Of a stretch of 64,000 nt of DNA, positions 1,672 through 53,864 are shown in pieces. This DNA is from a virus, in the IMG/VR virus record IMGVR_UViG_3300045988_107970, positions 32,001 to 96,000 of that record; one strand, 5' to 3'. A model generated the notes under the pieces. It worked only from the letters and a program-made list of their open reading frames with translations, ran no database searches and was not told where the DNA came from. The translations under genes were made by a program, and so were the position numbers. Position 1 is the first letter of the stretch. Each line of letters begins with the position of its first letter.

Positions 1672-2820
1672 ATGGCAAATGAGAAGAGTGGCATTAAGAA
1701 GACTGACTGGAAGTCAAGCTTTGTTCTAGTTGGCGCTGCAAAGGTAAATGATTATACCTTTACCATCGATAAGCAGAGTGAGCGCAGTTCTTGGGTTTAT
1801 AATTCTATGGGCCTTAACATTGACTGCGGTGAGAAGTATGGTACTGTACGCGCCGAGATGTTTGGTGGATATTCCCCAGACCGCGAGAATATTATCTATG
1901 CCCACGGCAAGGACGATAACGGCAATGATGACTTTTCTAAGCAGATGACTGTTGCTTGGGAAGACCGCTTTGATGATACGATTCTAGATGAGGTCGGCGA
2001 CCTTTCGTTCATCGTTGTCGGTCTTGAGAAGACTACGACTGGAAAGACCTATTATAAGAACTTCCTTAGCGAGTATGATGCCATTGCCTATGCTCAGGAG
2101 CATCTTGAGGACGGCATGATCGTAAACGTCAAGGGTCGTTTGCAGTATAGTATGTACAATGATACCGTTCAGGTTCGTAAGACTATTCAGAGCATTGTTC
2201 TTAGCAGCGCAGATGAGCCTTCTAAGTACTATGCTCGATTCACTCAGTCTGTTCTTCTTGATAAGGATTCTGCAAGCCTTAAGGATGTTGACAAGGACAA
2301 GGGCGTTATGTATGTGAATGCTCGTGTTCTTGATTATGTGAGTGAGCTTAACGGTACTGAGATTAATGGTCAGTATCCGTTCACAGAGCAGTTCGAGTTT
2401 CCAATGGACTTCACTAAGCCTGAGCTTTGCAAGAAGGTTTATGATAAGCTCTTTAAGATTAAGAAGAATGTTCGTCAGGTAACATTTGATGGTATCTTTG
2501 TTGAGGGCGGAGCTACTGTTACCGCAACAATGGATGATGTTCCCGATGATATCAAGAATCTAATTGATATGGGTATTTATTCTGAGGAGGAAGCACTTGC
2601 CAAGTGTAGTGCAAGCGGCTCTCGTGAGCGCCGTATGATTCTTCAGAAGCCAGTGATTAAGCTTGTTGGCGATGACAAGACTCCTGTTGTCCAAATCTTT
2701 GATGATAAGTATGAAGAGGATGAGCTTGTAATTAACACTGGTAGCGATGAGGATGCGCCATTTGATACTGATGAGAAGCCTTCAGATGGCTCAGATATGT
2801 CTTGGCTTGATTCCCTGTAA
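1672..2820 (+). CDS. putative ssDNA-binding protein with acidic C-terminal tail
   Basis: 382 aa with GGAGG RBS. Highly acidic tail ending DGSDMSWLDSL. Sits in a recombination module with the Sak4-like ATPase and the exonuclease. Function is inferred; no canonical motif was recognised. Confidence 0.35.
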   Translation: MANEKSGIKKTDWKSSFVLVGAAKVNDYTFTIDKQSERSSWVYNSMGLNIDCGEKYGTVRAEMFGGYSPDRENIIYAHGKDDNGNDDFSKQMTVAWEDRFDDTILDEVGDLSFIVVGLEKTTTGKTYYKNFLSEYDAIAYAQEHLEDGMIVNVKGRLQYSMYNDTVQVRKTIQSIVLSSADEPSKYYARFTQSVLLDKDSASLKDVDKDKGVMYVNARVLDYVSELNGTEINGQYPFTEQFEFPMDFTKPELCKKVYDKLFKIKKNVRQVTFDGIFVEGGATVTATMDDVPDDIKNLIDMGIYSEEEALAKCSASGSRERRMILQKPVIKLVGDDKTPVVQIFDDKYEEDELVINTGSDEDAPFDTDEKPSDGSDMSWLDSL

Positions 2821-3689: not shown

Positions 3690-4805
3690 ATGGGTAAGTT
3701 TGGTAAAAAGAATCATGTGTCACTAAATCCACTTGATGCCAATCTTTGTCTTCTAGGACTTCCCAAAATCGGAAAGACTACTATTATGAAGCAGGTAGCA
3801 GAGAAGCTTGTGGGGGAGTCTGGGTATCTGTTCCTTGAGATGTACAGGGAGAATGGCGCGAAGTACATCGAGGATATTGTCTACGAGAACGTGCCAGACT
3901 GGGATACGTTCGTAGAAATCATTGACGATATTGTTGAGAATAAGACTAGTGATTATCCAGATCTCAAAGTTGTCTTTATCGATACAATTGACAACGCCAT
4001 TCAGCTCGCAGAGCAGGAGAGTATTCGACTCTGGAACAAGGAGAATCCAACTAAGCGTACTACTGCAATTAATGCGGCTTGGGGAGGTTTTCAGAAGGGG
4101 CAAGATAAGGCGCTTGACCTGCTTCAGGAGCAGTGGTTCCGTCTTCGTGAGGTTGGCGTAGCGTTTTCTCTAATTGGTCATGTACGCCAGACAACCATCA
4201 CAGACCCAATTACGCTTGATACATATCAGCAGATTACATCTGATGTTTCGCAGCGATACTTTAATCAGATTAAGAAGAATATTGATTTGATTGGCATTGC
4301 TTACATTGACCGTGAAATTACCAAGGAGCGTACTGGCAAGAAGAACGCTGTAACTGGCAAGGATGAGGTTGTCAATAAGATTACTTCAGAAGCACGAAAG
4401 ATTAAGTTTAGGGATTCGAATTATTGTGTTGATAGCGGCGGTCGAATGTCTCAAATTGTCGAGGAGATTAACTTTGACGCAGACGAGTTTATTAAGGCAA
4501 TCACGAATGCCCTTGCCGCAGAGGTAACAAAGAGCGGCAAGTCTGTTGATGCTCGCGCAAAGGAAGACGCAAAGCGCGAGAAGGAAACAGCTAAGCGCGT
4601 TGCAGAGCAGGAAGAGCAGGCTAAGTCTCAGGCTGCTGTGGACGATGTAGTTGCTCAGATTGTTGATTTCTTTACTGAGAACAAGTCTGACATTGCAAAG
4701 ATTAAGCCAGTTCTTGCAGCCGTCAAGAATCTTGGGTATGACAACCCCAAGTCCATTGATAATGTCGAGGACGCAAACAAGATTCTCGCTCTAATTTCTG
4801 AGTAA
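3690..4805 (+). CDS. AAA_24 / Sak4-like recombination ATPase
   Basis: N-terminal P-loop LLGLPKIGKTT, Walker-B-like VVFIDTID, charged C-terminal extension. Confidence 0.55.
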   Translation: MGKFGKKNHVSLNPLDANLCLLGLPKIGKTTIMKQVAEKLVGESGYLFLEMYRENGAKYIEDIVYENVPDWDTFVEIIDDIVENKTSDYPDLKVVFIDTIDNAIQLAEQESIRLWNKENPTKRTTAINAAWGGFQKGQDKALDLLQEQWFRLREVGVAFSLIGHVRQTTITDPITLDTYQQITSDVSQRYFNQIKKNIDLIGIAYIDREITKERTGKKNAVTGKDEVVNKITSEARKIKFRDSNYCVDSGGRMSQIVEEINFDADEFIKAITNALAAEVTKSGKSVDARAKEDAKREKETAKRVAEQEEQAKSQAAVDDVVAQIVDFFTENKSDIAKIKPVLAAVKNLGYDNPKSIDNVEDANKILALISE

Positions 4806-7881: not shown

Positions 7882-8946
7882 ATGGATGCAGCTTCTCTAA
7901 AGGAATATATCTTCAATAATAATAAAGTTGAATTTGTTCTAGATAAGATTGGTTGTAAGTCAATTAAATATCACTCCTCTAAAAATTTTTATTCATCGAC
8001 TAATTACAATGGCGATAATAGCGGCGCTGTCAATGTCTACAATAACAAATATCTTCTCGTTCATAATTGGACTCGTGAGAGTGAGTTTGATGATGTTGCA
8101 GATATTATTTCCCTCACTAAATACAACAAGAAGTGTTCATTTGTAAGCGCCATTAAATATCTTCATAAGATTCTTGGGCTTAAGTTTACGCAATATGAAA
8201 AAGAGGAAAAGGAAGATCCGTTGGCTGTATTTAAGAACGCTATAAGTACGTGCAAATGTATAAACGTAGCGAATATACAAGCCATTAGAGAAGAAGCTAT
8301 CAACGATTATGTTCCTTTGCTCTACATTGATTGGCTGCGAGAAGGCATTATGCCTTGGGCTGCTAAAAAATTTGAACTAGCCTATTCATATAAATACCAT
8401 CGCGTAGTTGTTCCCATTAGATATTGGGAAGATGGCAGGCTAGTTGGGTTTAATCAAAGAACTACTGTCGAGAACTATGAAGAGCTGGGAATTCGTAAAT
8501 ATTTTCTGACACCCTCATATAAGAAAAACCTTAATCTCTATGGTCTTTGGGAAAACAAAGAAGAAATTGAGAACAAGAAGACTATAGTTATCTGTGAGTC
8601 TGAAAAGTCTGTCCTTAAAAGATATTCTCGCAATGATGGCACTTGTGTTGCGCTTCAAGGCAAGAAGCTAAGCGAAGAGCAAAGGAGTATTATCCTCGGA
8701 CTAGATGTAAACGAAGTTATTGTTGCTCTTGATAATGATGTTCCAATAGAAGAGGTACGCCACATATGCGAGCAGTTCTTCTATATGAGAAAAGTATCAT
8801 ATGTGAAGGATAGATGGGATTTGCTCGGCGAGAAAGATGCTCCCGCCGATGCAGAGAATAAGGTGTATAATTTTCTTATGAAGCATCGAGTTAGATATGA
8901 TGAGTCAGAGCATCAAAAGTATTTAAGTGGTCTTAAGAAGAAATGA
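7882..8946 (+). CDS. DNA primase (Toprim domain)
   Basis: 354 aa. Toprim signatures IVICESEKS and VIVALDNDVPIEE. Lies immediately downstream of the helicase. Confidence 0.6.
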   Translation: MDAASLKEYIFNNNKVEFVLDKIGCKSIKYHSSKNFYSSTNYNGDNSGAVNVYNNKYLLVHNWTRESEFDDVADIISLTKYNKKCSFVSAIKYLHKILGLKFTQYEKEEKEDPLAVFKNAISTCKCINVANIQAIREEAINDYVPLLYIDWLREGIMPWAAKKFELAYSYKYHRVVVPIRYWEDGRLVGFNQRTTVENYEELGIRKYFLTPSYKKNLNLYGLWENKEEIENKKTIVICESEKSVLKRYSRNDGTCVALQGKKLSEEQRSIILGLDVNEVIVALDNDVPIEEVRHICEQFFYMRKVSYVKDRWDLLGEKDAPADAENKVYNFLMKHRVRYDESEHQKYLSGLKKK

Positions 8947-31037: not shown

Positions 31038-32234
31038 ATGGGAAAAGACCTTAAAGGCAAAGACTTGGGGCGCGGATACAGTCAACGAAAAGATAAACGT
31101 TTTGAAGCGCGGTGTATGATTAACGGTACAAAAATTTGCTTATACGATATGCATCTACCAACATTAAAGAAACGTTTTGAAGAAGAAAAAATTAAGATTC
31201 TAAGAGACGAAAAGAATATTAGACCAAACCTTACACTGTCTGAATGGTTTGAAGAGTGGTTTGAAAAATACAAAAAGCCAGCATTGAAGTCGGAAGTGTC
31301 TAAAAAGGCATATCATAGAAAAGTATCCAACACATACATTGCTGCAATGGGAGATAAAAAGATAGAGAATATATCTCATATGAATATGCAAGATACAACA
31401 AACGAATTACTTAGTAAATTCAAAGCAAGAACGCTGAGAGAAGCACTTGGCGTACTCAGAGAGTGTTTGGATATAGCGGTTATGAATCAAATCATTAAGT
31501 CTAACCCGTGTATTAATATAGCAATAAAAGACGAGAATGAAGCTGTTCAAGAACGTAGGGTTTTGAGTTCTCGTGAAATGAAAATGTTTTTAGATGAAAT
31601 AGAACATGAGTATTACAATGAAGCTTACCAAATCTTATTACTTACTGGCATGAGAATCGGTGAATTCAGCGGCCTTCAATGGCAGGATATAAACTGGCAA
31701 AACAAAACAATCAGAATACAAAGAAGTCTGAGCATTGGCTATGTTGACGGCAAGAAAATGGAATATCTCACAACGCCAAAGACGAGCAATAGCTACAGAA
31801 CTATTCCGTTCTTCGGGAACGTAGGAGAACTATTTAAAGATTGGAAGGTAAAACAAGACCAATACAAAGCAAAGCTTGGAAGTAGATGGAGATTGCGACC
31901 AGAGTTAGGCGATTTAGTCTTTACGACAACACTTGGTTCGCCAGTAACAAGATATGCATTGTCCCATAACATTGAAAAGGTATTGAAGAACATCAACGAA
32001 AAAGAAGAATATAATGCGGCAATAGAAGGCAGAGCGCCAGAGAAGATGGAACACATCTATCCACATGCGTTTAGACATACGTTTGCTACTAGGTGTTTTG
32101 AAAAGAAATTAGATCCAGTGTTTATACAAAGAATCATGGGGCATACTAGTTATGCTACCACTTTGAAATATACCCACTTGTTAGAGACAAAACTGAATGA
32201 AGAAGTGGTAAAAGCAGAAGACTTCCTATTATAA
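31038..32234 (+). CDS. int: tyrosine integrase with N-terminal arm-binding domain
   Basis: 398 aa. Catalytic boxes LLLTGMRIGE, HAFRHTFATR and GHTSYATTLKYTH. N-terminus GRGYSQRKDKRFEARCMINGTKI resembles the Tn916-Int arm-binding fold. Confidence 0.8.
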   Translation: MGKDLKGKDLGRGYSQRKDKRFEARCMINGTKICLYDMHLPTLKKRFEEEKIKILRDEKNIRPNLTLSEWFEEWFEKYKKPALKSEVSKKAYHRKVSNTYIAAMGDKKIENISHMNMQDTTNELLSKFKARTLREALGVLRECLDIAVMNQIIKSNPCINIAIKDENEAVQERRVLSSREMKMFLDEIEHEYYNEAYQILLLTGMRIGEFSGLQWQDINWQNKTIRIQRSLSIGYVDGKKMEYLTTPKTSNSYRTIPFFGNVGELFKDWKVKQDQYKAKLGSRWRLRPELGDLVFTTTLGSPVTRYALSHNIEKVLKNINEKEEYNAAIEGRAPEKMEHIYPHAFRHTFATRCFEKKLDPVFIQRIMGHTSYATTLKYTHLLETKLNEEVVKAEDFLL

Positions 32235-36703: not shown

Positions 36704-36818
36704 ACCTCCTTGGTCATTAGAATTTATAAATATGGCTAATATTGTAACATAAAATGTGTTTTCTAATATTCAAAATTGTAGAACTTTTAATTTATATATA
36801 AATAAATTTATATGCACC

Positions 36819-36882
36819 ATTGAAAAAATCCCACGCAAGTTATATACTCATTTCGAGTTAAATTGCGTGGGATTTTTTCAAT
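36819..36882. terminator. 20-bp perfect inverted repeat (A-run / stem / T-run) just upstream of the recombinase gene
   Basis: ATTGAAAAAATCCCACGCAA (36819..36838) pairs with TTGCGTGGGATTTTTTCAAT (36863..36882). The 24-nt loop contains AGTTATATAC, which resembles the early-gene motif. Confidence 0.55.
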
Positions 36883-36897
36883 GAAAGGACTTAAAGA

Positions 36898-37794
36898 ATG
36901 AAACTTATCGACATCTATGAACAGCATTATCTACCCGAGAAAACACAGAAGAGGGCGGCATCCACCATAGCTGGATACGACTCGTCTATGCGTCTTCATG
37001 TACTTACGCGATGGGGCGAGTGCGAGATTGAAGACATCTGCCCTGATGATTTGCAGGAGTGGGTAGACTCGTTTGAAAAAGCTGGTGCAGGAGAGAAAGC
37101 GTTTAAATGTATTCGCCAAATCATCCGTTGGTGGATTCGCAAGAAGCGTCTACATATTATCGATCCAACCGCATACATAGAAGTAAACCATCCTAAACCT
37201 TATCGTCCAGATGTTTTAGACGCACAAGAGGTATCAGAGATGCTTCGTGGCATGTGGGGTCATTGGGCTGAAGCTGTAACTATCTGTGCTGTAACTCTTG
37301 GTTTGCGCCGTGGTGAAGCTTGCGCTCTCGAATGGTCTGATATCAATCTTAAGACTGGCGAAGTGCGTATCAGCAAGTCGCGTCAATATGTGAACGGTCA
37401 AATCATCACAGTAAAAACTAAGACAGAGAAGTCTACTAGGTCTTGCTATCTACCTAAGTTTGCACGTCAGCGCTTAAAGCAAATTAAAGGACATTGGCTT
37501 CTTATCGGTGATGTCTCTCCCGATAAAGCAGCTCGTGCCATCAAATCACAGTGCAAGAAGATGGGCGTGCCATATGTATCTATGACCAACATGCGCCATA
37601 CATGGGCTACACTTGCAATTGAAGCAGGAGTTGGCATCGAAACCGTTGCCATGATGCTTGGTCATACAGAGATTAGCACAGCATATAATCACTATATCGT
37701 TCCTCGTAAAACAATCTGCCAAGAAGCTCAGGCGGCTGTCGAGAAGCTGATATTCGACAAAGCTAGGAAGTCTAAAATAAGGGCTATAAGCTAA
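36898..37794 (+). CDS. tyrosine recombinase (arm-less, Rci/Xer-like), putative shufflon invertase
   Basis: 298 aa. Catalytic motifs LGLRRGEACAL, MRHTWATLAIEAG and LGHTEISTAYNHY. Its stop codon lies 1 nt before recombination site S1. Confidence 0.8.
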   Translation: MKLIDIYEQHYLPEKTQKRAASTIAGYDSSMRLHVLTRWGECEIEDICPDDLQEWVDSFEKAGAGEKAFKCIRQIIRWWIRKKRLHIIDPTAYIEVNHPKPYRPDVLDAQEVSEMLRGMWGHWAEAVTICAVTLGLRRGEACALEWSDINLKTGEVRISKSRQYVNGQIITVKTKTEKSTRSCYLPKFARQRLKQIKGHWLLIGDVSPDKAARAIKSQCKKMGVPYVSMTNMRHTWATLAIEAGVGIETVAMMLGHTEISTAYNHYIVPRKTICQEAQAAVEKLIFDKARKSKIRAIS

Positions 37795-37795
37795 C

Positions 37796-37813
37796 TGGGG
37801 ATTCCGTATCCCA
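37796..37813 (+). repeat. recombination site S1 (core ATTCCGTATCCC at 37801..37812)
   Basis: TGGGGATTCCGTATCCCA, forward orientation, partly palindromic. Confidence 0.8.
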
Positions 37814-38105
37814 AGCTCCTATAGAAGTGGCAAAGACAAGCGGGTCTACTTCATACGAATCATTTAAAGTAGATTTACCTACAACAAAAATGGGTTGTTT
37901 AATATGTGTCTACAACAATAGACCGCTATGTTCTACAGTGTTTCCCATATCTCATTTTATTAAAAATAATACAAAGGCAAGTGATTGTGTAGACTGCTAT
38001 TATGTTTCTGATATAAGTCTACATGCAACTGCTTATTATCAAAATGGATATTTATATTTACAGTCTGGCAATAAAGCTATAAGGGCAACCTTTGTTGTCT
38101 TTTAG
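37800..38105 (+). other. silent C-terminal cassette C1 (101 aa, starts DSVSQ)
   Basis: The frame is open from the site core through track ORF 37827..38105. No RBS or ATG at the head. Confidence 0.75.
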
Positions 38106-38106
38106 C

Positions 38107-38124
38107 ATAGCATTCCGTATCCCG
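38107..38124 (+). repeat. recombination site S2 (core 38112..38123)
   Basis: ATAGCATTCCGTATCCCG, forward orientation. Confidence 0.8.
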
Positions 38125-38362
38125 TATTATAAAAACAAAACAAATAGATACAAATACAGACCCTAATGGATATTTTGAAACAGGGCTTAACGCAAAGCAG
38201 ATTCCAATAGGAATTGGCGGATTGTACAATGCAAGATATGCATTTCATACTGGAACTGATGCACAACAGGGCAGAACAATTCGTCTTATGGCATGGGACG
38301 GCAGCGTAGGTGGATATTCAAATAAAAAAATAAATGTTATCGTTTATTATATTGAAGTTTAA
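38111..38362 (+). other. silent C-terminal cassette C2 (83 aa, starts HSVSR)
   Basis: Checked codon by codon: open from the core to TAA 38360..38362. Not listed in the ORF track. Confidence 0.75.
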
Positions 38363-38366
38363 TAGT

Positions 38367-38384
38367 TTAGCATTCCGTATCCCA
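38367..38384 (+). repeat. recombination site S3 (core 38372..38383)
   Basis: TTAGCATTCCGTATCCCA, forward orientation. Confidence 0.8.
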
Positions 38385-38664
38385 ATGTAAACCGCAATAT
38401 AAAATTTATGTTGGGTCGAGGGTGATAAACACCGCACAATCTTGGGGTACGCTATTTACAAAAGACGAATTTATATCCTCTTTTGGACGCGGATTTGATA
38501 ATTCAAGAGACAGCATATCAGTTATGAATGGAGATGCGAAAGCCAACAATATTACCGTTTTGGGTATTTCGTATTATCCGCAAGACGGTAAGTTGGTTGT
38601 TGCATTATCAGCGAACGGCGGCGGTGCTTTTAGGATCAATTATATCGTAGTTCTTGCTGAGTAG
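38371..38664 (+). other. silent C-terminal cassette C3 (97 aa, starts HSVSQ)
   Basis: Open from the core through track ORF 38422..38664, in the same frame. Confidence 0.75.
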
Positions 38665-38698
38665 ACGTTATTGGCATACGCATATAAGAAATCATGCG

Positions 38699-39031
38699 CT
38701 AGTTGATATACCATGAACAAATACCCCTGTTAATAGCACCAGATGTCGAAGCAGCAACTTGAAACCCAATTGCTCCGTTTGGATGGACATAGCCATATGC
38801 GCATACGTTGAGTATGTAGCCATTGGCATTTGTCACACATGATGGCGAATAAATTGTATGATCTGGTCGAAGATTTTCTGGAATGACATGTTCTATTCCC
38901 CAATACTCATTTGTTGATTGAGAAACAGTCCATACGAGCATACACGTGTGTCCAACACGCCGAATATGAACGTATGAGGAACTACCCGGTGCTCCGTATA
39001 GCACAAGCGTATCGTCTTGGGATACGGAATA
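38699..39031 (-). other. silent C-terminal cassette C4 (110 aa, starts YSVSQ)
   Basis: Open from the core through track ORF 38699..39004. Contains an IPENLRP motif. Confidence 0.75.
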
Positions 39032-39035
39032 CTAA
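39018..39035 (-). repeat. recombination site S4 (core 39019..39030)
   Basis: The minus strand reads TTAGTATTCCGTATCCCA. Confidence 0.8.
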
Positions 39036-39358
39036 GCTGGAATATTTAATATCGTTGCAGCAGTAGCCCAAATGTATTCTCCGTTAGCATTTGCTTTTAT
39101 TATTACTTCTCCATTATTATTTATTATACAATATCTTTGATAACTATAATTAGTAGCAACATTATCAGCTATGGCAAACACTATTTGCGCCGTTGGTCTA
39201 CAACCTTGTGGTAATGTGCATAAAGTTGTATATTCTGATTTAACATAGCAGTTTACTATTGTGATAAATAAAATATTGTTTATTTTTGAATAACATATAT
39301 AACCAACATTATTGTCCTTAACGTATTTGAATTGTCCATTAGTTTGGGATACGGAATA
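39032..39358 (-). other. silent C-terminal cassette C5 (108 aa, starts YSVSQ)
   Basis: Checked codon by codon: open. Not listed in the ORF track. Its TAG stop abuts the first codon of C4. Contains LPQGCRP. Confidence 0.75.
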
Positions 39359-39362
39359 CTAA
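39345..39362 (-). repeat. recombination site S5 (core 39346..39357)
   Basis: The minus strand reads TTAGTATTCCGTATCCCA. Back-to-back with S6. Confidence 0.8.
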
Positions 39363-39365
39363 GCA

Positions 39366-39383
39366 TGGGAATTCCGTATCCCA
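39366..39383 (+). repeat. recombination site S6 (core 39371..39382)
   Basis: TGGGAATTCCGTATCCCA, forward orientation, partly palindromic. Confidence 0.8.
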
Positions 39384-39723
39384 AATAAGCAATAGAGTAT
39401 TGCTTTGGAGCGGAACGGCTGGCAGAGGTGTGAAGATTACGATTAACAACGACTATTCATTTAAAAATTTCAAATCATTTTATTGCCTTACAAGTATCGA
39501 TAAAACAATCGGATTGCCGCTTGTAAGAAACTCTGAAATACAACAAGACCAGTATTTACACGGCGTTACTGGATGGGATGATGGCACGACAACATATACG
39601 CTTATTGGACTAATTAGAATAAACACAGAGACAACTGCGACCATTACGTCTATATCAAAACACGATATAGGTGGCAATGGTGGAATTGCTGGCAATTTAC
39701 TTAAACTATGGGGATATTACTAA
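39370..39723 (+). other. silent C-terminal cassette C6 (117 aa, starts NSVSQ)
   Basis: Open from the core through track ORF 39400..39723. Confidence 0.75.
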
Positions 39724-39726
39724 TCG

Positions 39727-40074
39727 TTACTTCCACATGCCTTTGACGTTATATTCTATAAACCCCACAGTAGTAGTATTGTTATCTGTAATATCTTGTT
39801 TTAATACATATACTCCAGTATTTACCAAGCTGATAGAAGCACCAGTGCCAGACAATATGAAAATACCCTTTTGTCCAGAACTATATATTGCAGAAGCGCC
39901 TTTATATAATAAACTAGTCAAAGGGAATGGAAAATCAATAGCTGGGACGGTAACACTGCCAACACCGCTTACTTTTTTTCCTCCCCAAAATTCTGCAAGA
40001 CCACTTTTCCACTTGCGATAAAACCAGATTCCTGATTCTCCCTGCGCGACAATATAGTCGTGGGATACGGAATG
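39727..40074 (-). other. silent C-terminal cassette C7 (115 aa, starts HSVSH)
   Basis: Checked codon by codon: open from the core through track ORF 39727..39921. Confidence 0.75.
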
Positions 40075-40078
40075 CTAT
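40061..40078 (-). repeat. recombination site S7 (core 40062..40073)
   Basis: The minus strand reads ATAGCATTCCGTATCCCA. Confidence 0.8.
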
Positions 40079-40425
40079 TAAATTTTTAAATACGTACAGC
40101 AACATTTAATTTGACCTAGAACTGTGTTAGACGGTAGTACATATTGCTTGATTTTGATTTCTCCACTTGTAGTGGTTCTTATCCAAAAGCTAATTGGATA
40201 AGAAGTCGTAGTGAATCCCAATACTGGAAGTTCAATATCGTATGTGCTAGGCGCGAAAGCAGACGGCATTGTCGCAAACGTTACATTTACATTTTTATTT
40301 GCGCTATTTCCAGCAACAACATCTACCCACATGGTTACGCAATTTTCTGTGCGCGTGATTGCGCCAGTTTGTATAACCCAACCATTAGCTCCCTTGCACG
40401 TATCTTTCGTCAGGGATACGGAATG
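40078..40425 (-). other. silent C-terminal cassette C8 (115 aa, starts HSVSL)
   Basis: Checked codon by codon: open from the core through track ORF 40078..40332. Confidence 0.75.
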
Positions 40426-40429
40426 CTAT
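40412..40429 (-). repeat. recombination site S8 (core 40413..40424)
   Basis: The minus strand reads ATAGCATTCCGTATCCCT. Confidence 0.8.
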
Positions 40430-40878
40430 TCAACAACAAAACAAAGAGAGCCGCTAAAGTAACGAGAACTATCTTCCTCACACCACGTGTCCACCTTGCC
40501 CATGGCATCAACGAATATTTGTCCAATTTTACTTGTTCCTCTTATATATCCAAAACCAATAGTATCGGCATTTGGTCTATATCCTTCTGGCAATACGCCT
40601 TTGGTTCCCAATGATGGCATATCATTCATAAGCACACATACTAAATGTCCAATACGAGTATATGCGCAATATCTATTACTTGCAATGCTCCCTTGTAGAC
40701 ATGTAAACTTAGTTGGGGATACGGAATCCCACAACGTTGTAATTTCATTGGCGACATTGTATGTACCGCCGTTGCCCTTGGCATTGTTAATTGTCAGTGT
40801 GCCACCAACAGATAGATTTCCAGCGATAGAATCGCCAGTCTTATTTACATAAACATCATCAAGATTAACCCAACTCAT
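40426..40878 (-). CDS. small tail-fibre / receptor-binding-like protein: 50-aa constant N-terminus fused to cassette C9
   Basis: AAAGGAAG RBS and ATG at 40878. The N-terminus SWVNLDDVYVNKTGDSIAGNLSVGGTLTINN is a fibre-type motif. Site S9 sits at codons 50-54 and the variable part is 40426..40728. Confidence 0.75.
   Translation of the reverse strand: MSWVNLDDVYVNKTGDSIAGNLSVGGTLTINNAKGNGGTYNVANEITTLWDSVSPTKFTCLQGSIASNRYCAYTRIGHLVCVLMNDMPSLGTKGVLPEGYRPNADTIGFGYIRGTSKIGQIFVDAMGKVDTWCEEDSSRYFSGSLCFVVE
40714..40731 (-). repeat. recombination site S9, the expression-locus junction (core 40716..40727)
   Basis: The minus strand reads TGGGATTCCGTATCCCCA. Lies inside the expressed CDS and encodes W-D-S-V-S. 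Confidence 0.8.
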
Positions 40879-40925
40879 ATTTTTACTTCCTTTCATTCAA
40901 ACTTTGATATATAATCAATCAAGAT

Positions 40926-46653: not shown

Positions 46654-49600
46654 TTAGAAAGAAATCTCAATCAATACGCCGTTTTGTGTTCCAGCTGTAT
46701 TGAATCCATATAGATCGCCCTGCTCGTTTACCGTATAGATATAATTTGTATACGAAACGTTCTGTGAGCGAGTCCAGTAAGGCGTGTAATCGCCATCGAC
46801 AGCTGCACGCTTCCTAGCATCATTAGATGTCATATAAGAAATGATTTCACCCTCGTTAACAAATGGCTCTCCGCTGACTTCATATGAATTACTAAGCTCG
46901 ATAGCGGCAGGAATGGAGACGTAGCATTGAGATGCGCTAAGCTCTTTTGATCCATTGCCGATAGAAGAGTTAACCGTGACCTGCTTAATGAGAAGTTTAA
47001 TCTTTACAGGCAATGCTTCATAGAATCTTGTATTCAAGAAACTATTCAGGTCAGAGCTAGTCCAACCGCCAGCGTTGCTTCCGTTCTCATTAAATACGCG
47101 CTTTCTGTCAAGAAGGTGCTTTGCAAGCAAGCTGAACGTACAACGCTTAGACGGCTCATTGCTGAGATAGTATTTTTTAAAACTACATACCTCAAGCGCT
47201 ATGTTCTCATGCGGCCAACCAGCGAGCTTCTTGCAGACTGCATCGCCAAGGTCTTCGTACCAAATCTTGCTCCAATACACGTTGCCGACAGCATAGTTCT
47301 CATATGCGCCATCGTCAGCCTTAGAACAGCCGAATACAAGAGTGCTATCTATGATTGTTGACTTTGTTCTTTCAAGCTTTATAATATCGGGTTCGCCGCC
47401 ATTAAGGTTAGAATAATATACATAGATATTATTGTCACCTTTTTTGTGTCTAAGTACAACCATGTCACGGCTGCCAACAGAACCAGCACTAGTCGAAGAC
47501 GTACCCCAGCTCATCTTGATTCCGCTATTAGACCACAACTTAAATCCGTTTGAACCATTTGACTGGAAACATTGGGCAAGGACGCTTTTTTCAGATGTGC
47601 CGCTTAAGAATTTATAATCAATTGCCAATACGAAATCTTTGTCGGTATCAAAAAGCTTGATTCCTGTATCAACATAATTCTTGCCAGCAAAAACGGTTTT
47701 CTCAGAGATAACTGTTTTCGATGTGATATCATCATAATCAATATCATATCCCATATTAAACGAATATGCGTCACCAGCCTGAATGTTGGCACCAGAATTA
47801 TCAAGACCTAGTTTTGTAATGGCATAAACCTCAACAGGTCGCATATCCTTTAGCTCTTTGCCAGCAAGGGCAGTTGGAGTATATGTAAACGTATCGAATA
47901 TTGCATTTACGGTCTTATCTCCGTCAATAAAACCGCTCTTATCCCACCTATCAAACATATAATATTTATATGCGTTTTCCTCAAGGGTGTAAGTGGGAAT
48001 TGCACCAGTGTATTCAACATTCTCACCATACAGTCCAGTAGATTCCTGAAGCGTCACGCCACGCGAGACATATTTAATCGTATAGCGTCTCGTTGTCTCA
48101 CTATACGTTGCCTTGATTGTCCTGTCACTGAAGATGTTAGTCAACGGCAAATCCCATGCTTCAAACGTAAAGTCTGTGCTTACGGAGCTTGGCTTGGTGG
48201 GCGTGTCGATAGGATTGTCTACTCTCGTTATCGGGTCAACGGCATTGCCGCCCTTATCGACATACTGCGTATCAAGAACAGCATCATCATAGTTTACGAA
48301 CTTGACAATAAACTGTTCAACCATCGTATTGAATACAATCTCTAAATCAGGCCACGCTTCCTGATAGTCATAGAGCTGCTGCTGCTTTACAATCGGGACA
48401 TGAACCGTGCCAGATAACACAGCCACGTCAACGTTGTATCCGTTCTTGTCGATACCAGCCATCTTATAGATTCTATCGAGAAGGGATGTATCGTCAAGAG
48501 TCCAGTCAATACCGATGATTCTTGCCCTGCTGACATTTCTGGCTTTATCGAGTAGGTCTTTGATGTCTACCGTATTGCAGTTCTCTATGATGAGAGTGGA
48601 GATTGAATCGTACCCAGCAATAGAAAGATTTGTTAGATACATTAGATTCTTCATGTTGATAGACGTAAGAGTAGCAGGCAATTGAGCCAACCTAATGCTA
48701 CCACCGCTTGCAAATAGAACGCCCCTCAGCCCAGAACCAGAAGCATAAAGCTCCTCAAGATTCATGCACTTTGAGAAGTCCAAGCTGCTTATGAGATTGG
48801 GCGTATTCCTGATATCAAGTTTCTCAAGAAGCTTATTGTTTCCGATGACCAAGTTCGTCAAGAAGGTATTGGAGTATCCTTCTGTGGCATTACCGATAAT
48901 CAACTCTTTTAGCTTTTCAGCCTTGGAGAAGTCGTTGTCATGTATGTAGCAGGCAGATATATCGCCGACAGATTGAATTCTTGACGCACCGTAGATAAGA
49001 ACTGCGGTATCATCCATTGTATCATAGGGACACTTGATGTCGTACTGCTTGCCAGCCTTCGCCCTTACCTGAGTAGGCGTTGAGTTACCGAACATGACGG
49101 ACAGATACATATCCGAGAACGGCGTAAGGTGGAGCGTGTAGTTTGGCGCAACAACGGCATCCTTTGGCGTATTGCATCTAAACATAATCTGGTCAGATGT
49201 AGCTGTATTGCCGATGAACTTGGTAGCCATATACATCTCTTGATCGCGCTCAAACTGTCTACGCTGATACTTCTTCTTACCATTCATCATCTGTTCAAGG
49301 AATCGAGTGTTGCCGTCTTTATAAGGACGCTCATACTTGCGCACGTAGTCAACGCGCCAAAGCTCTTCGCACCACTCGTTCTGCTTCTCATCGAACTGAT
49401 TGATAAGAGAAGATGCACTCCAACAGTTTTTACTTTCGCGGCTTACATACATCTTCTGAAGGTCGGAACCCATTAGATCACGGACGCGACAGAAGAACAC
49501 TGACTCGGCTGCGTTAAACACATAGCCAGAAGATTGATCTCCCTCTGTGCGGTAGTCAGTATCTTCCTTGCCATAAGTCATTGTAAGCTCGCCGCTGTTG

Positions 49601-52600
49601 TTAATACCCAAAGCCGAGTCGTTATCATAGTCCCATAAATCAAAGCGGTATCCGTTATTGATTCCAGCAGCAGCATCATCAACCGTATAGTAAGCAGCTT
49701 TATCGCCAAGCGTTGTCGCTTCGGCTGTTGTGATATAATGCTTAGCCCAGTGCCAGAAAGTATTCTTACTTCTGTTGTCTATCATCGTATATCTAAGCGT
49801 GAATAGATAGAAGTATGTAGCAGAATCAACAACAAACCAATTCTTGAGATTGTTCTTGAATTCCTCATCTGTAGATGTAATTACGAACTCATAGAAGTCT
49901 CGCCAAATCTGTTTATTCTTCGTTCTGATTTTAGTCTTTTCCTCGCTGCTTGAAATAGCTTCGCCGTCTTTTGAGTCTCCGCAACAATCGTACCTAAACT
50001 CAAACGAACCATCCCAATCATTATACAAAGCGTCATATGCTGTATTGCCAGCAACCCATTCAGCTTTTGTGATAGGATATTTCATAGAACCATCAGGATT
50101 GGCAACGCCAGTTTGGAAGATGGAATTAGGCAATGTATTATCGCTAATCTCAACAGCGAATTCTTTCATATCGTCTGGGTCATACGCTCTTGTAACATCT
50201 GTCTTCTTAGAGTCACCGATGTTGCCCAAGGCGTAGAAATGCCATGAGGTATCTTGGAATTCCCTGTGTGTAGTTAAATCTGTGTCGCTTTCCTTAATGA
50301 ACACAACGCAGTTAACGAACTCCATGTCGTTCTTAATCTTAGAATCTCTACGAGTTGCAGGAGTAGCATATGGGATATAATCATTATATCTCTTCTGAAG
50401 ATATGCGTTGTTCACCATCTCGGAGCTTGCGATATTGACTTTGACGTTGAACCAGTTATTAGGCACAGAGGTTCTAGTAAGGGCAATCTTGCCAGAGCCG
50501 TCAGTAACAACACTACCATCGCCAAGCGTAAGCTTTGTAATATAATTTGGGTCTAGCTCAATCTTGCTACTCACCTGATGCTTGCCATCAAAACCAGCAA
50601 TAAGGTCGATGTTACGACCAGCTGCACCATACTCATTTGATGTAGTGCCTTGTCCAGAATGATAGCAATTCTCAAACTTCCAGTTGTCAAGAACTGCGTC
50701 ACCATTCTTATAGATGCATTCGAAAGATGTATTGGCTACAAAGTCCTTCTTGTTATTGGTGAAATGCGGAGCTTCAATCTTGATAACACGCATATTAGGA
50801 CAAGCATTGGCAACAGACTCAGGAGTCAAAAGCTTGTTCTCATCATAAATCTGGTTACGTGTATAGCGAGCAATCATCTCGGTTGCAGTACGTGCATCCG
50901 CAATAAAATTAGACAAAATTGCCGAGCTTGTAAGGCTTGTATTATATGCCTTCATACGATAAATCAAAACATCGCAATCAGGAGAGCCAATGGTAATCGG
51001 TACGGGAGAGTCCTGAGTAAATGAATAATCGCCTGTATAGCTCATAGGACGGCACGGCGTACCATCTTCATAAGACATGACAATGGGAATGTCGGTATCC
51101 TTATTGATATTGAACTCCCACTCGATAACATCTTCCTCGCTATACGGGATATACAAAGACTTCGCACTTGATTTAATGTATGCTTCATGTACATTCATCT
51201 GAAGGCCGACATTAGACGTAGTACCAGACTGACAAGTCAAGAACGTAGCATTACTCTTCGCAACGTTAGTTGTCTTGAAGATTAGCTTAAATTCCTTGCC
51301 ATTCTTCTTGGCATCATCTGCAAAAAGATTGTAAGAGATAGTTGCCGTAGTTCCAGCCTTAACGCCAAAGTATTGATCGCCATTATCGTCAATCTGATAT
51401 CCGCCATTAACCCAGTCGAAATTATCAGATACGGTCATAGCGACATCGCCATCAGACCACAATCTATCGGTGTCGTTATTAGACTTACCAACAGGATTGA
51501 AATCAAATGCAAGACCAGCAACAACAGGCTCAACATCAATATCGAGCTTTTCAACATTTACCGTTAAGGTCTTAACAGTATCACGACAAGTAATAGTAAG
51601 TGTATGTGCGCCAATGTCAGAAGACTTAAACTGCCATGTCTGAGTATTATTATCAATTGTCAGTGTTGAGACGGTTTTTCCGTCAACGGCTAGAGTTACT
51701 TGTGGAGTTTCAGTAGATGGGTCGTATACAGTATACACAATGTTTGTTGTGTCATACTGTTTAGCCGTAAACTTCTGCTTAACACATCCAATTACAGGCT
51801 TGTCACTTGTTGAATCATACCAAATAATATCTTTAACAATATGATTGGATTCAATTGCCTTACCGTTGACTTCTGCCGTCATGTACACTTCGAGTAAATG
51901 AGCGCCATGTGTCTGAGCAGGAAGGTCATACGCCAAGGGGACACCAGAAACAGCAGTATCTACAGTTCCGATTTCATTACCGTCTAAAATAAAATGAACC
52001 TTCTTTTGAATAGCGCCATAAGGAGTGTAATCAAAAGAAACTTTTCCAATGGGGTATGTAAAGCTGTCATTAAAAGAAGATTCAAGCCTGACATCAACCC
52101 TTTGAACAGTCCAAGTCTTAGTTACAAGACTGCCAGCGTCATCAACAATACTAAGATTGACCTTGTGTGTACCAACTGTAATATGGTCGGTAATATCAAA
52201 AGAGTTTTCACCAGACGCAGCGGTATTCGTAGCAACAATAGAACCGTCAACTTTCCATGTCGCAGTACCATCGCCGCCAACATCGCCAGAAGAGTCGGTT
52301 CTAGAGAAGTTGTACTTGATAATAATCTTATCGTCTAACGTTGCCACAACGGGGGTTGTTGTGATATATGTAATCTTCAGGATGCTGCTGGTTCCGCCAC
52401 CGCCACCGCCGCCTTGAATCTTGAACTGAGCTTTTGCTTCTTTTTTTTCGTCCGACTTGCCCTCGTTTTGAATTTCCCAAAGGGTATAAGTATGCTCTTC
52501 ATCGTATGTGGCATCATATGTTAAACGAGGAGAAGTATCAAGACCATTAATGGTTTCTTCAAATTTAGCAACCTTATCGCCAAGCTTGGTCACATTTTCC

Positions 52601-53787
52601 TTATTTGCATTTGCGGTAGATGTCACAGAAGCAACATTGGTGTTGGTCGTATTAAGACTTGCTTTTGTCGCAAACTTCTCGTCTGCTTCTGTTTTAGCGT
52701 CATTAATCTTTTTGTCAACACCAGCTGTGTATTGCGTAGTCCATTCCTCGGTTGGGTCGCTTGTGATTTGAATTGCTTTCATCACAGTTTCGCCATTGTA
52801 GAACGTCATCTTACTGCCATCGTATGTGACATTGAACTTAGCAAGACCATCTAAGTTAGCAATTTGCTGCTTCACTTCATCAAGTTGGTCAGAGATATCA
52901 ATATTTTTAACAATATTGTCAACCTGAGTCTTGGTATAATAAGAAGATAACGCGGTGGCTACTTTATCATTCACAGCAGAAGAGACAGTTCCTTCAAGCT
53001 GAGTCTTTGCGGTATCAACAACCTGCTGTGCTTTGTTTGCAGATGCTTCTGCTTTATCAGCGTAATCAGAGATACCGTCAACAGTTGTCTTTGCTTCCTG
53101 CGCATAGCGCTGAGCTTCTGCAACCTTCTCATTTACCTGAGTCATAAAGCTGGTAATCCATGTGTTATCAGGCTCAATGGCTCCGTTGCCAGCAAGAGAC
53201 TTAAGTACGCTCAGCTGGTTGTTCGGCTTTGTCTTCCAAACATACTCATCGCCCTTTGAGTTTACGCCAGATGCAATAATCTCAAACTCAAGAGTGCCTT
53301 CAACGGCAGTTGCATTCTTACCAACAAGCCAACCGAATCTAATATACTCATCATTATAATATACATTTACAACGTTGCTACGGTCTTCATATCCGTCTTT
53401 ATTGACATAATGAATAATAATGGTTGTGTTAAGAAGGTCAAAGCCATCATATCTACGTGGCATCTTAAATGGGATATATTGCGAATTCGATTCTTGCGTA
53501 AGGTTAATTTGCTTCTTATCAATTAAGACATTCTTTACATCATCAACATTTGAAATGTTCTCATCTGAATACTCTTCGTAATACAGGTAATTACTGCTGC
53601 GAGTCCAACCTTCTAACGAATTAGAGTTCACAGCGACAGCGGATTCATCATCAAGAGATGTAAGAGAGATATCATCATATACTGGCACATCATCATCAAG
53701 AGACATAAGAGAGATATTATTATCCATCATTCTTGCATTGTTATTTTCTTTAGCTTTATTTAACGAATCTTTAAAAGATAAACCCAT
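46654..53787 (-). CDS. giant (2377 aa) fibre/adhesin-like virion protein with LRR and InlB B-repeat modules
   Basis: AGGAGG RBS and ATG 53787. An LRR-like block (LKELIIGN...LEKLDIRNTPNL...LEELYASGSGL...LTNLSIAGYDSISTL). Two List-Bact repeats (FIVKFVNYDD..., YTIKYVSRGV...FDRWD). Ig-like beta-rich segments. C-terminal YWTRS-type domain. Confidence 0.6.
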   Translation of the reverse strand: MGLSFKDSLNKAKENNNARMMDNNISLMSLDDDVPVYDDISLTSLDDESAVAVNSNSLEGWTRSSNYLYYEEYSDENISNVDDVKNVLIDKKQINLTQESNSQYIPFKMPRRYDGFDLLNTTIIIHYVNKDGYEDRSNVVNVYYNDEYIRFGWLVGKNATAVEGTLEFEIIASGVNSKGDEYVWKTKPNNQLSVLKSLAGNGAIEPDNTWITSFMTQVNEKVAEAQRYAQEAKTTVDGISDYADKAEASANKAQQVVDTAKTQLEGTVSSAVNDKVATALSSYYTKTQVDNIVKNIDISDQLDEVKQQIANLDGLAKFNVTYDGSKMTFYNGETVMKAIQITSDPTEEWTTQYTAGVDKKINDAKTEADEKFATKASLNTTNTNVASVTSTANANKENVTKLGDKVAKFEETINGLDTSPRLTYDATYDEEHTYTLWEIQNEGKSDEKKEAKAQFKIQGGGGGGGTSSILKITYITTTPVVATLDDKIIIKYNFSRTDSSGDVGGDGTATWKVDGSIVATNTAASGENSFDITDHITVGTHKVNLSIVDDAGSLVTKTWTVQRVDVRLESSFNDSFTYPIGKVSFDYTPYGAIQKKVHFILDGNEIGTVDTAVSGVPLAYDLPAQTHGAHLLEVYMTAEVNGKAIESNHIVKDIIWYDSTSDKPVIGCVKQKFTAKQYDTTNIVYTVYDPSTETPQVTLAVDGKTVSTLTIDNNTQTWQFKSSDIGAHTLTITCRDTVKTLTVNVEKLDIDVEPVVAGLAFDFNPVGKSNNDTDRLWSDGDVAMTVSDNFDWVNGGYQIDDNGDQYFGVKAGTTATISYNLFADDAKKNGKEFKLIFKTTNVAKSNATFLTCQSGTTSNVGLQMNVHEAYIKSSAKSLYIPYSEEDVIEWEFNINKDTDIPIVMSYEDGTPCRPMSYTGDYSFTQDSPVPITIGSPDCDVLIYRMKAYNTSLTSSAILSNFIADARTATEMIARYTRNQIYDENKLLTPESVANACPNMRVIKIEAPHFTNNKKDFVANTSFECIYKNGDAVLDNWKFENCYHSGQGTTSNEYGAAGRNIDLIAGFDGKHQVSSKIELDPNYITKLTLGDGSVVTDGSGKIALTRTSVPNNWFNVKVNIASSEMVNNAYLQKRYNDYIPYATPATRRDSKIKNDMEFVNCVVFIKESDTDLTTHREFQDTSWHFYALGNIGDSKKTDVTRAYDPDDMKEFAVEISDNTLPNSIFQTGVANPDGSMKYPITKAEWVAGNTAYDALYNDWDGSFEFRYDCCGDSKDGEAISSSEEKTKIRTKNKQIWRDFYEFVITSTDEEFKNNLKNWFVVDSATYFYLFTLRYTMIDNRSKNTFWHWAKHYITTAEATTLGDKAAYYTVDDAAAGINNGYRFDLWDYDNDSALGINNSGELTMTYGKEDTDYRTEGDQSSGYVFNAAESVFFCRVRDLMGSDLQKMYVSRESKNCWSASSLINQFDEKQNEWCEELWRVDYVRKYERPYKDGNTRFLEQMMNGKKKYQRRQFERDQEMYMATKFIGNTATSDQIMFRCNTPKDAVVAPNYTLHLTPFSDMYLSVMFGNSTPTQVRAKAGKQYDIKCPYDTMDDTAVLIYGASRIQSVGDISACYIHDNDFSKAEKLKELIIGNATEGYSNTFLTNLVIGNNKLLEKLDIRNTPNLISSLDFSKCMNLEELYASGSGLRGVLFASGGSIRLAQLPATLTSINMKNLMYLTNLSIAGYDSISTLIIENCNTVDIKDLLDKARNVSRARIIGIDWTLDDTSLLDRIYKMAGIDKNGYNVDVAVLSGTVHVPIVKQQQLYDYQEAWPDLEIVFNTMVEQFIVKFVNYDDAVLDTQYVDKGGNAVDPITRVDNPIDTPTKPSSVSTDFTFEAWDLPLTNIFSDRTIKATYSETTRRYTIKYVSRGVTLQESTGLYGENVEYTGAIPTYTLEENAYKYYMFDRWDKSGFIDGDKTVNAIFDTFTYTPTALAGKELKDMRPVEVYAITKLGLDNSGANIQAGDAYSFNMGYDIDYDDITSKTVISEKTVFAGKNYVDTGIKLFDTDKDFVLAIDYKFLSGTSEKSVLAQCFQSNGSNGFKLWSNSGIKMSWGTSSTSAGSVGSRDMVVLRHKKGDNNIYVYYSNLNGGEPDIIKLERTKSTIIDSTLVFGCSKADDGAYENYAVGNVYWSKIWYEDLGDAVCKKLAGWPHENIALEVCSFKKYYLSNEPSKRCTFSLLAKHLLDRKRVFNENGSNAGGWTSSDLNSFLNTRFYEALPVKIKLLIKQVTVNSSIGNGSKELSASQCYVSIPAAIELSNSYEVSGEPFVNEGEIISYMTSNDARKRAAVDGDYTPYWTRSQNVSYTNYIYTVNEQGDLYGFNTAGTQNGVLIEISF

Positions 53788-53864
53788 TGTCATCCTCCTT
53801 TCAAACAATAATAAAAAAGAGGATGACAAATCACCCTCATATTATTCAATAAATATAAGTGCAT

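Follow-up and report, generated by a model that had tools for sequence, protein, structure and literature searches.

The 64,000-nucleotide stretch of viral DNA analyzed here (positions 32,001 to 96,000 of the IMG/VR record IMGVR_UViG_3300045988_107970; referred to below as the window) carries, beside a tyrosine recombinase gene, an array of nine short recombination sites, each heading a cassette for an alternative C-terminus of a tail-module protein. This locus adds an unusually large new member to the known Rin family. The complete reading presented below, i.e., a Rin-family phage shufflon with nine cassettes in a large human-gut phage, together with the interpretation of the left arms of its sites and the proposed mechanism, is likely to be correct. 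The Rin shufflon was reported from prophages of Bifidobacterium breve and Bifidobacterium longum by Mavrich et al. (2018), where the repeat (rix) is TTCCCTAACCC (PMC6109161), and a rin shufflon with the repeat ttccgtat occurs in clade 1 prophages of Eggerthella lenta (PMC8778435). The 11-bp repeat of the window, TTCCGTATCCC, is identical to the published rix at 9 of 11 bases (PMC6109161). The comparisons were made with about 170 related loci (labeled L001 etc.). The lineage of the window comprises viral contigs of 100-130 kb and contigs of human-gut metagenomes, and a DNA search against annotated phages gave no match to the window.

The assignment to the Rin family is based on the following features: (i) the sole recombinase gene found beside the array encodes a tyrosine recombinase and not a serine recombinase of the Gin/Cin/Min type; (ii) this protein lacks an arm-type DNA-binding domain; (iii) it is homologous to the recombinases of Rin-type loci (the locus of Bifidobacterium phage PMBT6 and rix-carrying loci); (iv) an asymmetric repeat heads all nine cassettes, one copy being placed inside the expressed gene; (v) a constant N-terminal part pairs with C-terminal cassettes that are mutually dissimilar and approximately 100 residues long; and (vi) related genomes differ by inversions at the sites, with breakpoints at the cores. 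The recombinase contains a Phage_integrase domain (Pfam; 6e-17) and an N-terminal SAM-like domain, the catalytic domain ending at residue 268; in NCBIfam and PDB, the top matches of the protein were XerA, XerD and XerC. Its nearest relatives in annotated phages are encoded by Siphoviridae sp. ctl617 (37.6% identity) and PMBT6 (36.3%); pairwise alignment with the recombinase of the PMBT6 shufflon locus gave 34% identity over the full length (E 5e-61). The recombinases of 51 loci with the published rix TTCCCTAACCC are 34-40% (about 36%) identical to that of the window, also over the full length, while relatives at 70-72% identity are found in genomes of Collinsella and Enteroscipio, which belong to the same class as E. 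lenta. The PMBT6 and ctl617 loci have the layout of the window: their cassette sites consist of TAGCTT, TAGCAT or TAGTTT followed by TCCGTAACCC, and the site of the constant gene consists of TGGGAT followed by TCCGTAACCC, encoding W-D-S-V-T.

An earlier note on this DNA had described nine sites with a common right part, and nine exact copies of ATTCCGTATCCC (four on the plus and five on the minus strand) are indeed present in the window, all at 37801-40727 (Table 1). With up to two mismatches allowed, 11 matches were obtained in the window, a number that none of 100 shuffles reached; the two additional matches are imperfect and located outside the array region. The same note had counted A as the base after CCC at six of the nine sites, which agrees with our count (S1, S3, S4, S5, S6 and S7), and its two classes of left flank were recovered as well: read in coding sense, S1, S6 and S9 have TGGGG, TGGGA and TGGG, respectively, while TAGC is found at S2, S3, S7 and S8, and TAGT at S4 and S5. 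In the register of the core, the arms of the first class are GGGGA (S1), GGGAA (S6) and TGGGA (S9). GGGA mirrors TCCC in register at S1 and S9 only, S6 being shifted by one base. The sites are conserved from position -5 to position +11, with not more than 0.5 bit per position outside this stretch. The inverted repeat GGGAT...ATCCC of the constant sites is centered on the fourth core base, which fits a 7-bp overlap, TTCCGTA, with 4-nucleotide arms GGGA and TCCC. Thus, the 16-bp site would be composed of a 5-nucleotide left arm, a probable 7-bp overlap and a 4-nucleotide right arm, the overlap and the cleavage positions, -1|+1 on the top and +7|+8 on the bottom strand, being predicted from sequence. 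The right half described as invariant in the note is the same at all nine sites, but its arm extends only 4 nucleotides (TCCC) past the probable overlap.

Table 1. Coordinates of the features of the shufflon locus and of equivalent features in related loci (sites are given in coding sense as left arm, putative overlap and right arm; core, ATTCCGTATCCC)
Feature	Locus	Position	Strand	Core start	Remarks
Tyrosine recombinase (Rin-type invertase)	Window	36898..37794	+		298 residues; TAA stop 2 nucleotides before S1
S1	Window	37797..37812	+	37801	GGGGA TTCCGTA TCCC; recombinase-proximal outer site; class 1 arm, non-coding
Cassette A	Window	37800..38105	+		101 codons; silent; a single S1 x S9 inversion would express it
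S2	Window	38108..38123	+	38112	TAGCA TTCCGTA TCCC; class 2; TAG in frame with site
Cassette B	Window	38111..38362	+		83 codons; silent
S3	Window	38368..38383	+	38372	TAGCA TTCCGTA TCCC; class 2
Cassette C	Window	38371..38664	+		97 codons; convergent with D; C and D form one invertible segment, moving as a unit
Cassette D	Window	38699..39031	-		110 codons; silent
S4	Window	39019..39034	-	39019	TAGTA TTCCGTA TCCC; class 2; cassette E ends at its TAG (39034-39032)
Cassette E	Window	39032..39358	-		108 codons; silent
S5	Window	39346..39361	-	39346	TAGTA TTCCGTA TCCC; class 2; one half of head-to-head module; no frame ends there
S6	Window	39367..39382	+	39371	GGGAA TTCCGTA TCCC; other half of head-to-head module; class 1-like, one base out of register
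Cassette F	Window	39370..39723	+		117 codons; convergent with G; F and G form one invertible segment
Cassette G	Window	39727..40074	-		115 codons; silent
S7	Window	40062..40077	-	40062	TAGCA TTCCGTA TCCC; class 2; TAG is a second in-frame stop right after the TAA of cassette H
Cassette H	Window	40078..40425	-		115 codons; silent
S8	Window	40413..40428	-	40413	TAGCA TTCCGTA TCCC; class 2; TAG (40428-40426) is the stop of the gene now in expressed position
Cassette I	Window	40426..40728	-		100 codons; now fused to constant region, in expressed position
S9	Window	40716..40731	-	40716	TGGGA TTCCGTA TCCC; class 1; constant-region site; read through as W-D-S-V-S
Constant N-terminal region of variable tail-module protein	Window	40729..40896	-		~56 codons
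Head-to-head module	Window	39346-39382			
Head-to-head modules	L001	9837-9873; 10820-10856			
Head-to-head module	L004	10903-10924			
Head-to-head module	L008	10172-10193			
Equivalent palindrome upstream of recombinase gene	L001-L019	~7920-7990			
Equivalent palindrome upstream of recombinase gene	L104	~4385-4440			
Equivalent palindrome upstream of recombinase gene	L105	~2030-2085			
Equivalent palindrome upstream of recombinase gene	L166	~2058-2110			

All nine cores head a cassette that is open in the frame xAT-TCC-GTA-TCC for 83-117 codons. The cassette following S9 lies behind about 56 constant codons with a start codon, and the resulting open reading frame (ORF; 40426..40896, minus strand) encodes a protein of 156 residues. 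The cassettes are mutually dissimilar, the sole weak similarity (27%) being that of D and E to I, and the constant region is 82-99% conserved among relatives whose cassettes differ. The genes adjoining that of the variable protein match tail-fiber PHROGs. The protein itself gave no match in Pfam, PHROGs, PDB or annotated phages (INPHARED; tblastn), and it has in common with the corresponding PMBT6 protein only LWDSV(S/T), i.e., the site itself. A single-sequence AlphaFold2 prediction of the expressed protein was unusable (predicted local distance difference test score, pLDDT, 32.6). The block of tail genes also contains an ORF of 2379 residues (46654-53793, minus strand), which matches only PHROGs of unknown function (phrog_14959 and phrog_24896).

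Traces of recombination were found when the cassettes of the window and of 19 related loci, clustered at 80% identity, were compared. Cassette F is preceded by the arm GGGAA in the window, by TAGTA in L001 and L009, by TAGCA in L006 and by the constant-region arm in L008. The convergent pairs C/D and F/G move as units and are found flipped: the S3-S4 segment is inverted in L001 at 97% identity, with C there fused to the constant region, and both the S3-S4 and the S6-S7 segments are inverted among L001, L004 and L008. Fusion to the constant region was further observed for C in L177, for F in L008, L184, L185, L187 and L192, and for G in L179, all three cassettes being silent in the window. BLAST blocks start and stop at cores; alignments to the closest relatives run out at 37812-37817, no more than a few bases from the end of the S1 core, and on the constant side the homology with relatives begins at 40709-40717, likewise no more than a few bases from where the S9 core starts. 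In nature, the canonical Rin shufflon has three invariant segments, for which at least 9 of the 12 possible arrangements were observed, and full cassette sets outnumber reduced sets; inversion is clearly frequent in this population.

The related loci also define where the exchange takes place. Position -1 goes with the left flank (the constant site of L016 and L018 has A there, and their cassette sites all have T, shared cassettes being no exception), and position +11 goes with the cassette (L008 and L009), which confines the exchange to the 10-bp core TTCCGTATCC. An interpretation of the 16-mer as an R64-style spacer plus right arm was ruled out, since position -1 follows the left flank and never mixes between the classes. 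Cores with G and with A are never mixed in one locus (102 loci have TTCCGTA only and two have TTCCATA only, at all ten sites), which fits a need for identical overlap regions. The latter sublineage comprises L012 and L015 (recombinase 84-85% identical), with TTCCATATCCC at all ten sites of each; the concerted G-to-A change at the presumed center of the overlap turns the encoded V into I.

The two classes of left arm recur among the related loci. An in-frame stop codon at positions -5 to -3 is present in 225 of 360 unique related sites (TAG in 220, TGA in 5, TAA in none), and a further 63 have 40 or more open codons upstream, with the arms GGGGA, CGGGA or TGGGA. The split was also found with other cores (TTCCATATCCC, TTCCGTAACCC and TTCCCTAACCC), and its recurrence in 360 sites and in these subfamilies shows that it is not a chance effect. 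TAG(C/T)(A/T) arms are conserved among recombinases that are only 34-37% identical. The upstream cassette ends at the TAG of the site at 145 of 216 tail-to-head junctions overall, at 48 of 74 in the recombinase-ascertained set and at 94 of 98 in canonical Rin loci. Within the window, TAG is the exact upstream stop at the E/S4 and I/S8 junctions, while the cassettes at A/S2 and B/S3 end 5 and 8 nucleotides earlier, respectively, in other frames. As crossovers occur to the right of position -1, each left arm is permanently linked to its upstream sequence. The classes are mainly explained by this upstream stop, one meaning that reading continues and the other that the upstream reading frame ends at the site. 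A third and rarer arm type, xGTGA, has a TGA at -3 to -1 which ends the upstream cassette in a frame other than that of the site. Such arms are found in L035 (6878-9509) and L087 (477-1157); among the ten directly repeated sites of L035, seven have arms ending in GTGA or GTAA, and the other three have TGACA and TAGCA.

Besides the coding role, several features of the arms point to a residual constraint at the DNA level, as judged from the sequences. The 40 long ORFs of the window end with TAA (29), TAG (9) or TGA (2); TAG normally ends nine of them, and a stop-codon reassignment behind the TAG arms was thereby ruled out. About 94% of TAG arms have a pyrimidine at -2 and A or T at -1, both positions being untranslated, and TAGGA, which is the stop-bearing arm nearest to the palindrome (the one-mismatch option), is rare. 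TAG is retained out of frame and at S5, where nothing ends. In the constant arm, a change of W to R (TGG to CGG) is tolerated while GGGA is kept, and the arms of the non-coding sites S1 and S6 are still GGGA-like. The exact 16-mer TAGYATTCCGTATCCC is used by recombinases only 37-57% identical to that of the window. The preference for TAG in a TAA-rich genome, the fixed position of the stop, the conservation of -2 and -1, and the unused TAGs argue that the arm is constrained as DNA. The most economical reading is that the TAG-type arm is a non-cognate arm of a specific kind, which the recombinase would bind weakly.

We propose the following mechanism. The recombinase would act on the nine sites, each heading a promoter-less C-terminal cassette, of which only the one joined to the constant 5' region would be expressed; inversion between S9 and any oppositely oriented site would place a new cassette behind the constant region. 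In the constant region, where reading must go on, the arm is (N)GGGA, which mirrors TCCC and encodes W/R/G-D. At the end of an upstream cassette the arm is TAG(C/T)(A/T), TAG normally serving as the stop of that cassette; S1 and S6, with no frame to terminate, have GGGA-like arms. The cassette sites would then possess one cognate and one non-cognate arm, and the constant site is nearly symmetric. TAG-type arms may be weakly bound and loaded through cooperativity, and this asymmetry may add to the polarity of the sites and to a bias toward inversion that is not absolute.

Several observations weigh against this interpretation. No base is common to the GGGA, GTGA and TAGYW arms, and the strict conservation of TAGYW is thus not really explained; S5 keeps TAGTA although no frame ends there, and at 19 of 206 junctions the TAG lies in a frame other than that of the upstream cassette. 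Precise gains or losses of single units between direct sites occur in canonical Rin-type loci, near-palindromic GTGA-type arms are present in a long direct array (L035), and two palindromic constant-type sites are found in direct order (L019), which together count against asymmetry being strongly linked to protection from deletion. Both the weak arm and the 7-bp overlap are deduced for this family from sequence comparison, and the variable protein may be a receptor-binding protein of the tail, to judge by its genetic context.

The target of the R64 shufflon is the pilus tip protein PilV. In that system, the 7-bp core of the sfx site is flanked by 12-bp arms, of which the left is variable and the right conserved; artificially symmetric sfx sites undergo excision in addition to inversion, and the Rci recombinase has an extra C-terminal domain that has been implicated in direction control (PMC11852207). 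The earlier note was right to regard the repeats as sites of an inversion system, the locus being a multiple-inversion system with a tyrosine recombinase, and what it stated about R64 agrees with the published description (PMC11852207). The likeness of the arms is partial: they are asymmetric and fall into two left-arm classes, but the left arm is conserved rather than degenerate, and the right arm has 4 nucleotides. The comparison with R64 offers a picture of how the system may operate and is supported only in part; the locus is of the Rin and not of the Rci/sfx type: neither an extra C-terminal recombinase domain nor the sfx site design was found, the Xer-like recombinase of 298 residues having its catalytic domain extended to residue 268. 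Deletion, which the note expected this design to prevent, is not excluded: two pairs of canonical Rin loci (L135 vs. L122 and L119 vs. L170) differ by exactly one unit bounded by two direct cores. These units of 316 and 311 bp (positions 1754-2069 of L122 and 814-1124 of L170), with flanks 88-99% identical, involve the constant site in one case and two TAG-type sites in the other (L119 vs. L170). Each is the footprint of a site-specific deletion or of the insertion of a cassette circle, which demonstrates that site-to-site deletion or insertion does occur. The pair L011 and L019 was rejected as a further example of deletion: the sequence of L011 is the same but truncated, and that of L019 contains two tandem constant-region genes.

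The model of the note, in which, as in R64, one conserved and one non-cognate arm permit inversions only, so that direct repeats are protected from deletion, is a reasonable hypothesis, yet rather unlikely to hold. In its favor, symmetric sfx sites of R64 also give excision (PMC11852207), the asymmetry of the cassette sites is conserved at 34-37% recombinase identity, and the pyrimidine at -2, unneeded for the stop, takes the arm further from a palindrome. L012 and L015 maintain arrays with 9-10 direct sites, the canonical Rin population contains far more rearranged full sets than reduced ones, and the authors of the Rin study themselves posed the avoidance of deletion of directly repeated cassettes as an open question (PMC6109161). 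Against it stand the absence from the recombinase of the Rci C-terminal domain implicated in direction control (PMC11852207), and the near symmetry of the constant site, which is a partner in every productive switch. The local synapse is identical for direct and inverted partners, and asymmetry alone therefore cannot sense orientation. Moreover, loci differ by precise units between direct sites, in one case between two TAG-type sites, and both direct arrays of GTGA-type sites and direct pairs of palindromic constant sites are maintained.

It is unlikely that the left arms are a by-product of coding and descent, with TAG as a copied ancestral stop, GGGA as W/G/R-D codons and a recombinase that ignores the left arm. 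Such an origin would agree with TAG being the upstream stop at 65-96% of junctions, with the second solution, GTGA, embedding a TGA stop in another frame, and with left arms that always move with, and are inherited with, the upstream cassette. It fits poorly with the use of TAG in ~98% of cases in a genome dominated by TAA and its maintenance in PMBT6 and Rin-type loci, with a stop at one fixed position beyond which (past -5) at most 0.5 bit remains, with the conserved untranslated pyrimidine at -2 and A/T at -1, with TAG kept out of frame or where nothing ends (S5), with GGGA-like arms at the non-coding S1 and S6, and with a constant arm that tolerates TGG to CGG and keeps GGGA.

A further explanation, which we consider doubtful, is partner choice: the near-symmetric constant site would be a strong "master" and the TAG-type sites weak partners, so that most exchanges would include the constant site and be productive, while exchanges between cassettes, among them deletions within the silent array, would be rare. 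It loosely resembles attI and attC of integrons. In the simplest architectures (L015, L016 and ctl617) the constant site is the sole GGGA-type site and is inverted relative to all others, and with inversions anchored at the constant site as the only moves, every one of the 12 states of the canonical shufflon can be reached. The palindrome preceding every recombinase gene examined (described below) has GGG(A/T)TT arms, which may mark the cognate half-site. Yet the observed arrangements fit a rule allowing any pair equally well (both rules reach all 12 states, and the arrangements were discarded as uninformative for separating them), one natural unit difference lies between two TAG-type sites (L119 vs. 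L170), the avoidance of deletion between the constant site and a direct partner is left unexplained, and the extended similarity between palindrome and constant arm is modest.

Upstream of the recombinase gene, a very stable palindrome, GAAAAAATCCCACGCAAG...CTTGCGTGGGATTTTTTC, is present at 36818-36842 / 36859-36883 of the window (-36 kcal/mol, z = -9) and ends approximately 14 nucleotides 5' of the start codon. In all family members examined, down to 34% identity, an equivalent palindrome whose arms end in GGG(A/T)TTTT is located in front of the recombinase gene (Table 1). Its arms resemble the GGGA-TT arm of the recombination sites: GGGTT is found in Rin-type loci and PMBT6, whose sites end with AACCC, and GGGAT in lineages whose sites end with ATCCC, and also in ctl617 despite its right arm AACCC. 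Extended similarity between the palindrome and the constant arm was rejected as evidence of a long half-site, being too weak (a mean of 3.6 of 8 positions). The palindrome could be an autoregulatory operator, with a promoter-like -10 element in its loop in the window, or equally a terminator-like attenuator; among the members examined no compensatory changes were seen.

Two variations of the array architecture were observed. The first is the head-to-head or "stuffer" module, in which two inverted cores are located 13 nucleotides apart, one with a TAGTA arm and the other with a CATGGG(A/T)A arm. The S5/S6 module is also present in L001, L002, L007, L009 and L013, and in L004 and L008 the head-to-head cores overlap to give a perfect 22-nucleotide palindrome, GGGATACGGAATTCCGTATCCC. 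The number of convergent segments minus that of head-to-head segments must equal 1, and each module thus permits one more convergent pair. The second is found in L019 (9638 and 10224), where two genes lie in tandem, both with a constant region of their own (92% identical over 200 nucleotides) and a constant-type site; tandem constant-region genes are also present in L191 and L013 (2143 and 3405), and in these relatives one shufflon may serve two genes.

The cassettes themselves are subject to turnover. L007, whose arrangement is identical to that of L183, and the window are 99% identical in the flank of the constant region and 96% identical in that of the recombinase, while none of the eight cassettes of L007 is in common with the nine of the window. 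At most one base separates the ends of the homology from the outer cores (37813 and 40716), and the whole array appears to have been replaced as a block. Some cassettes are 83-90% identical between loci whose recombinases show 85% vs. 45-60% identity to that of the window (cross-lineage pairs include L012_9875 and L035_2820), which hints at horizontal exchange of cassettes between phage lineages with a common 16-bp site. The sharing of cassettes, the replacement of the array and the unit differences allow site-mediated movement of cassettes or arrays between phages; homologous recombination may also account for it. A bolder proposal, to which we give little credence, is that TAG(C/T)(A/T) is a deliberately non-cognate half-site that gives partner choice and inversion bias to Rin-type invertases, which have neither an arm-binding domain nor the C-terminal domain of Rci, and that cassettes are portable units of an integron-like pool of gut-phage tail tips. 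If this were true, units consisting of core, cassette and TAG arm would move by site-specific excision and insertion between phages whose recombinases are 37% identical, with the 16-bp site unchanged.

Shufflons with phage-encoded tyrosine recombinases are known from few reports. The window and the approximately 170 related loci provide a precise, conserved site anatomy, with which the question of how deletion is avoided (PMC6109161) becomes experimentally approachable by arm swaps. Versions with 8-13 sites are carried by large human-gut phages, and the replacement of entire cassette sets between genomes that are 96-99% identical in the flanks bears on the prediction of host range and on the engineering of inversion-only tools.

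Among the known systems, Min (of p15B), Gin (Mu) and Cin (P1) are serine invertases with an enhancer and Fis. Like the locus in the window, they are phage-encoded and exchange C-termini of tail fibers by inversion, Min with several crossover sites, but the recombinase of the window is a tyrosine recombinase. The R64 shufflon shares with the window multiple inversion by a tyrosine recombinase, alternative C-termini of an adhesin-like protein and asymmetric sites, one per cassette; it differs in its 12-bp right arm and variable left arm, as opposed to the 4-nucleotide right arm and the conserved classes TAGYW, NGGGA and GTGA, and in the additional C-terminal domain described for Rci (PMC11852207), for which the 298-residue protein has no room. 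The shufflon of a BV01-like Phocaeicola phage is likewise a tail-fiber system of a gut phage with several cassettes and a recombinase alongside, in which the inverted cassettes supply their own stop codons; its motif is TGGGAGAACT and it has three cassettes (PMC13596623). The repeat of the E. lenta rin shufflon, ttccgtat, corresponds to the first 8 nucleotides of the core described here and was reported to lie "just after a stop codon" (PMC8778435); that system belongs to another phage lineage, and the 8-bp repeat alone was reported, without an analysis of arms, crossover or classes. The closest parallel is the Rin shufflon of Bifidobacterium, in which a phage tyrosine invertase without an arm-binding domain is encoded beside promoter-less, mutually dissimilar C-terminal cassettes of a tail-associated protein, each headed by an 11-bp repeat (PMC6109161), and the split of left arms into TAG and TGGGA is present in rix-carrying loci. 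The two differ in the number of cassettes and sites (nine in the window and 8-13 sites in relatives with a complete locus vs. about five), in the length of the constant region (~56 vs. 168 codons) and in the genome (39% guanine plus cytosine and related contigs of 100-130 kb vs. an actinobacterial prophage of ~40 kb). The left-arm classes and the stop-codon rule are not part of the description by Mavrich et al. (PMC6109161), and the lineage of the window additionally possesses the head-to-head modules and the GGGA-type recombinase-proximal arm.

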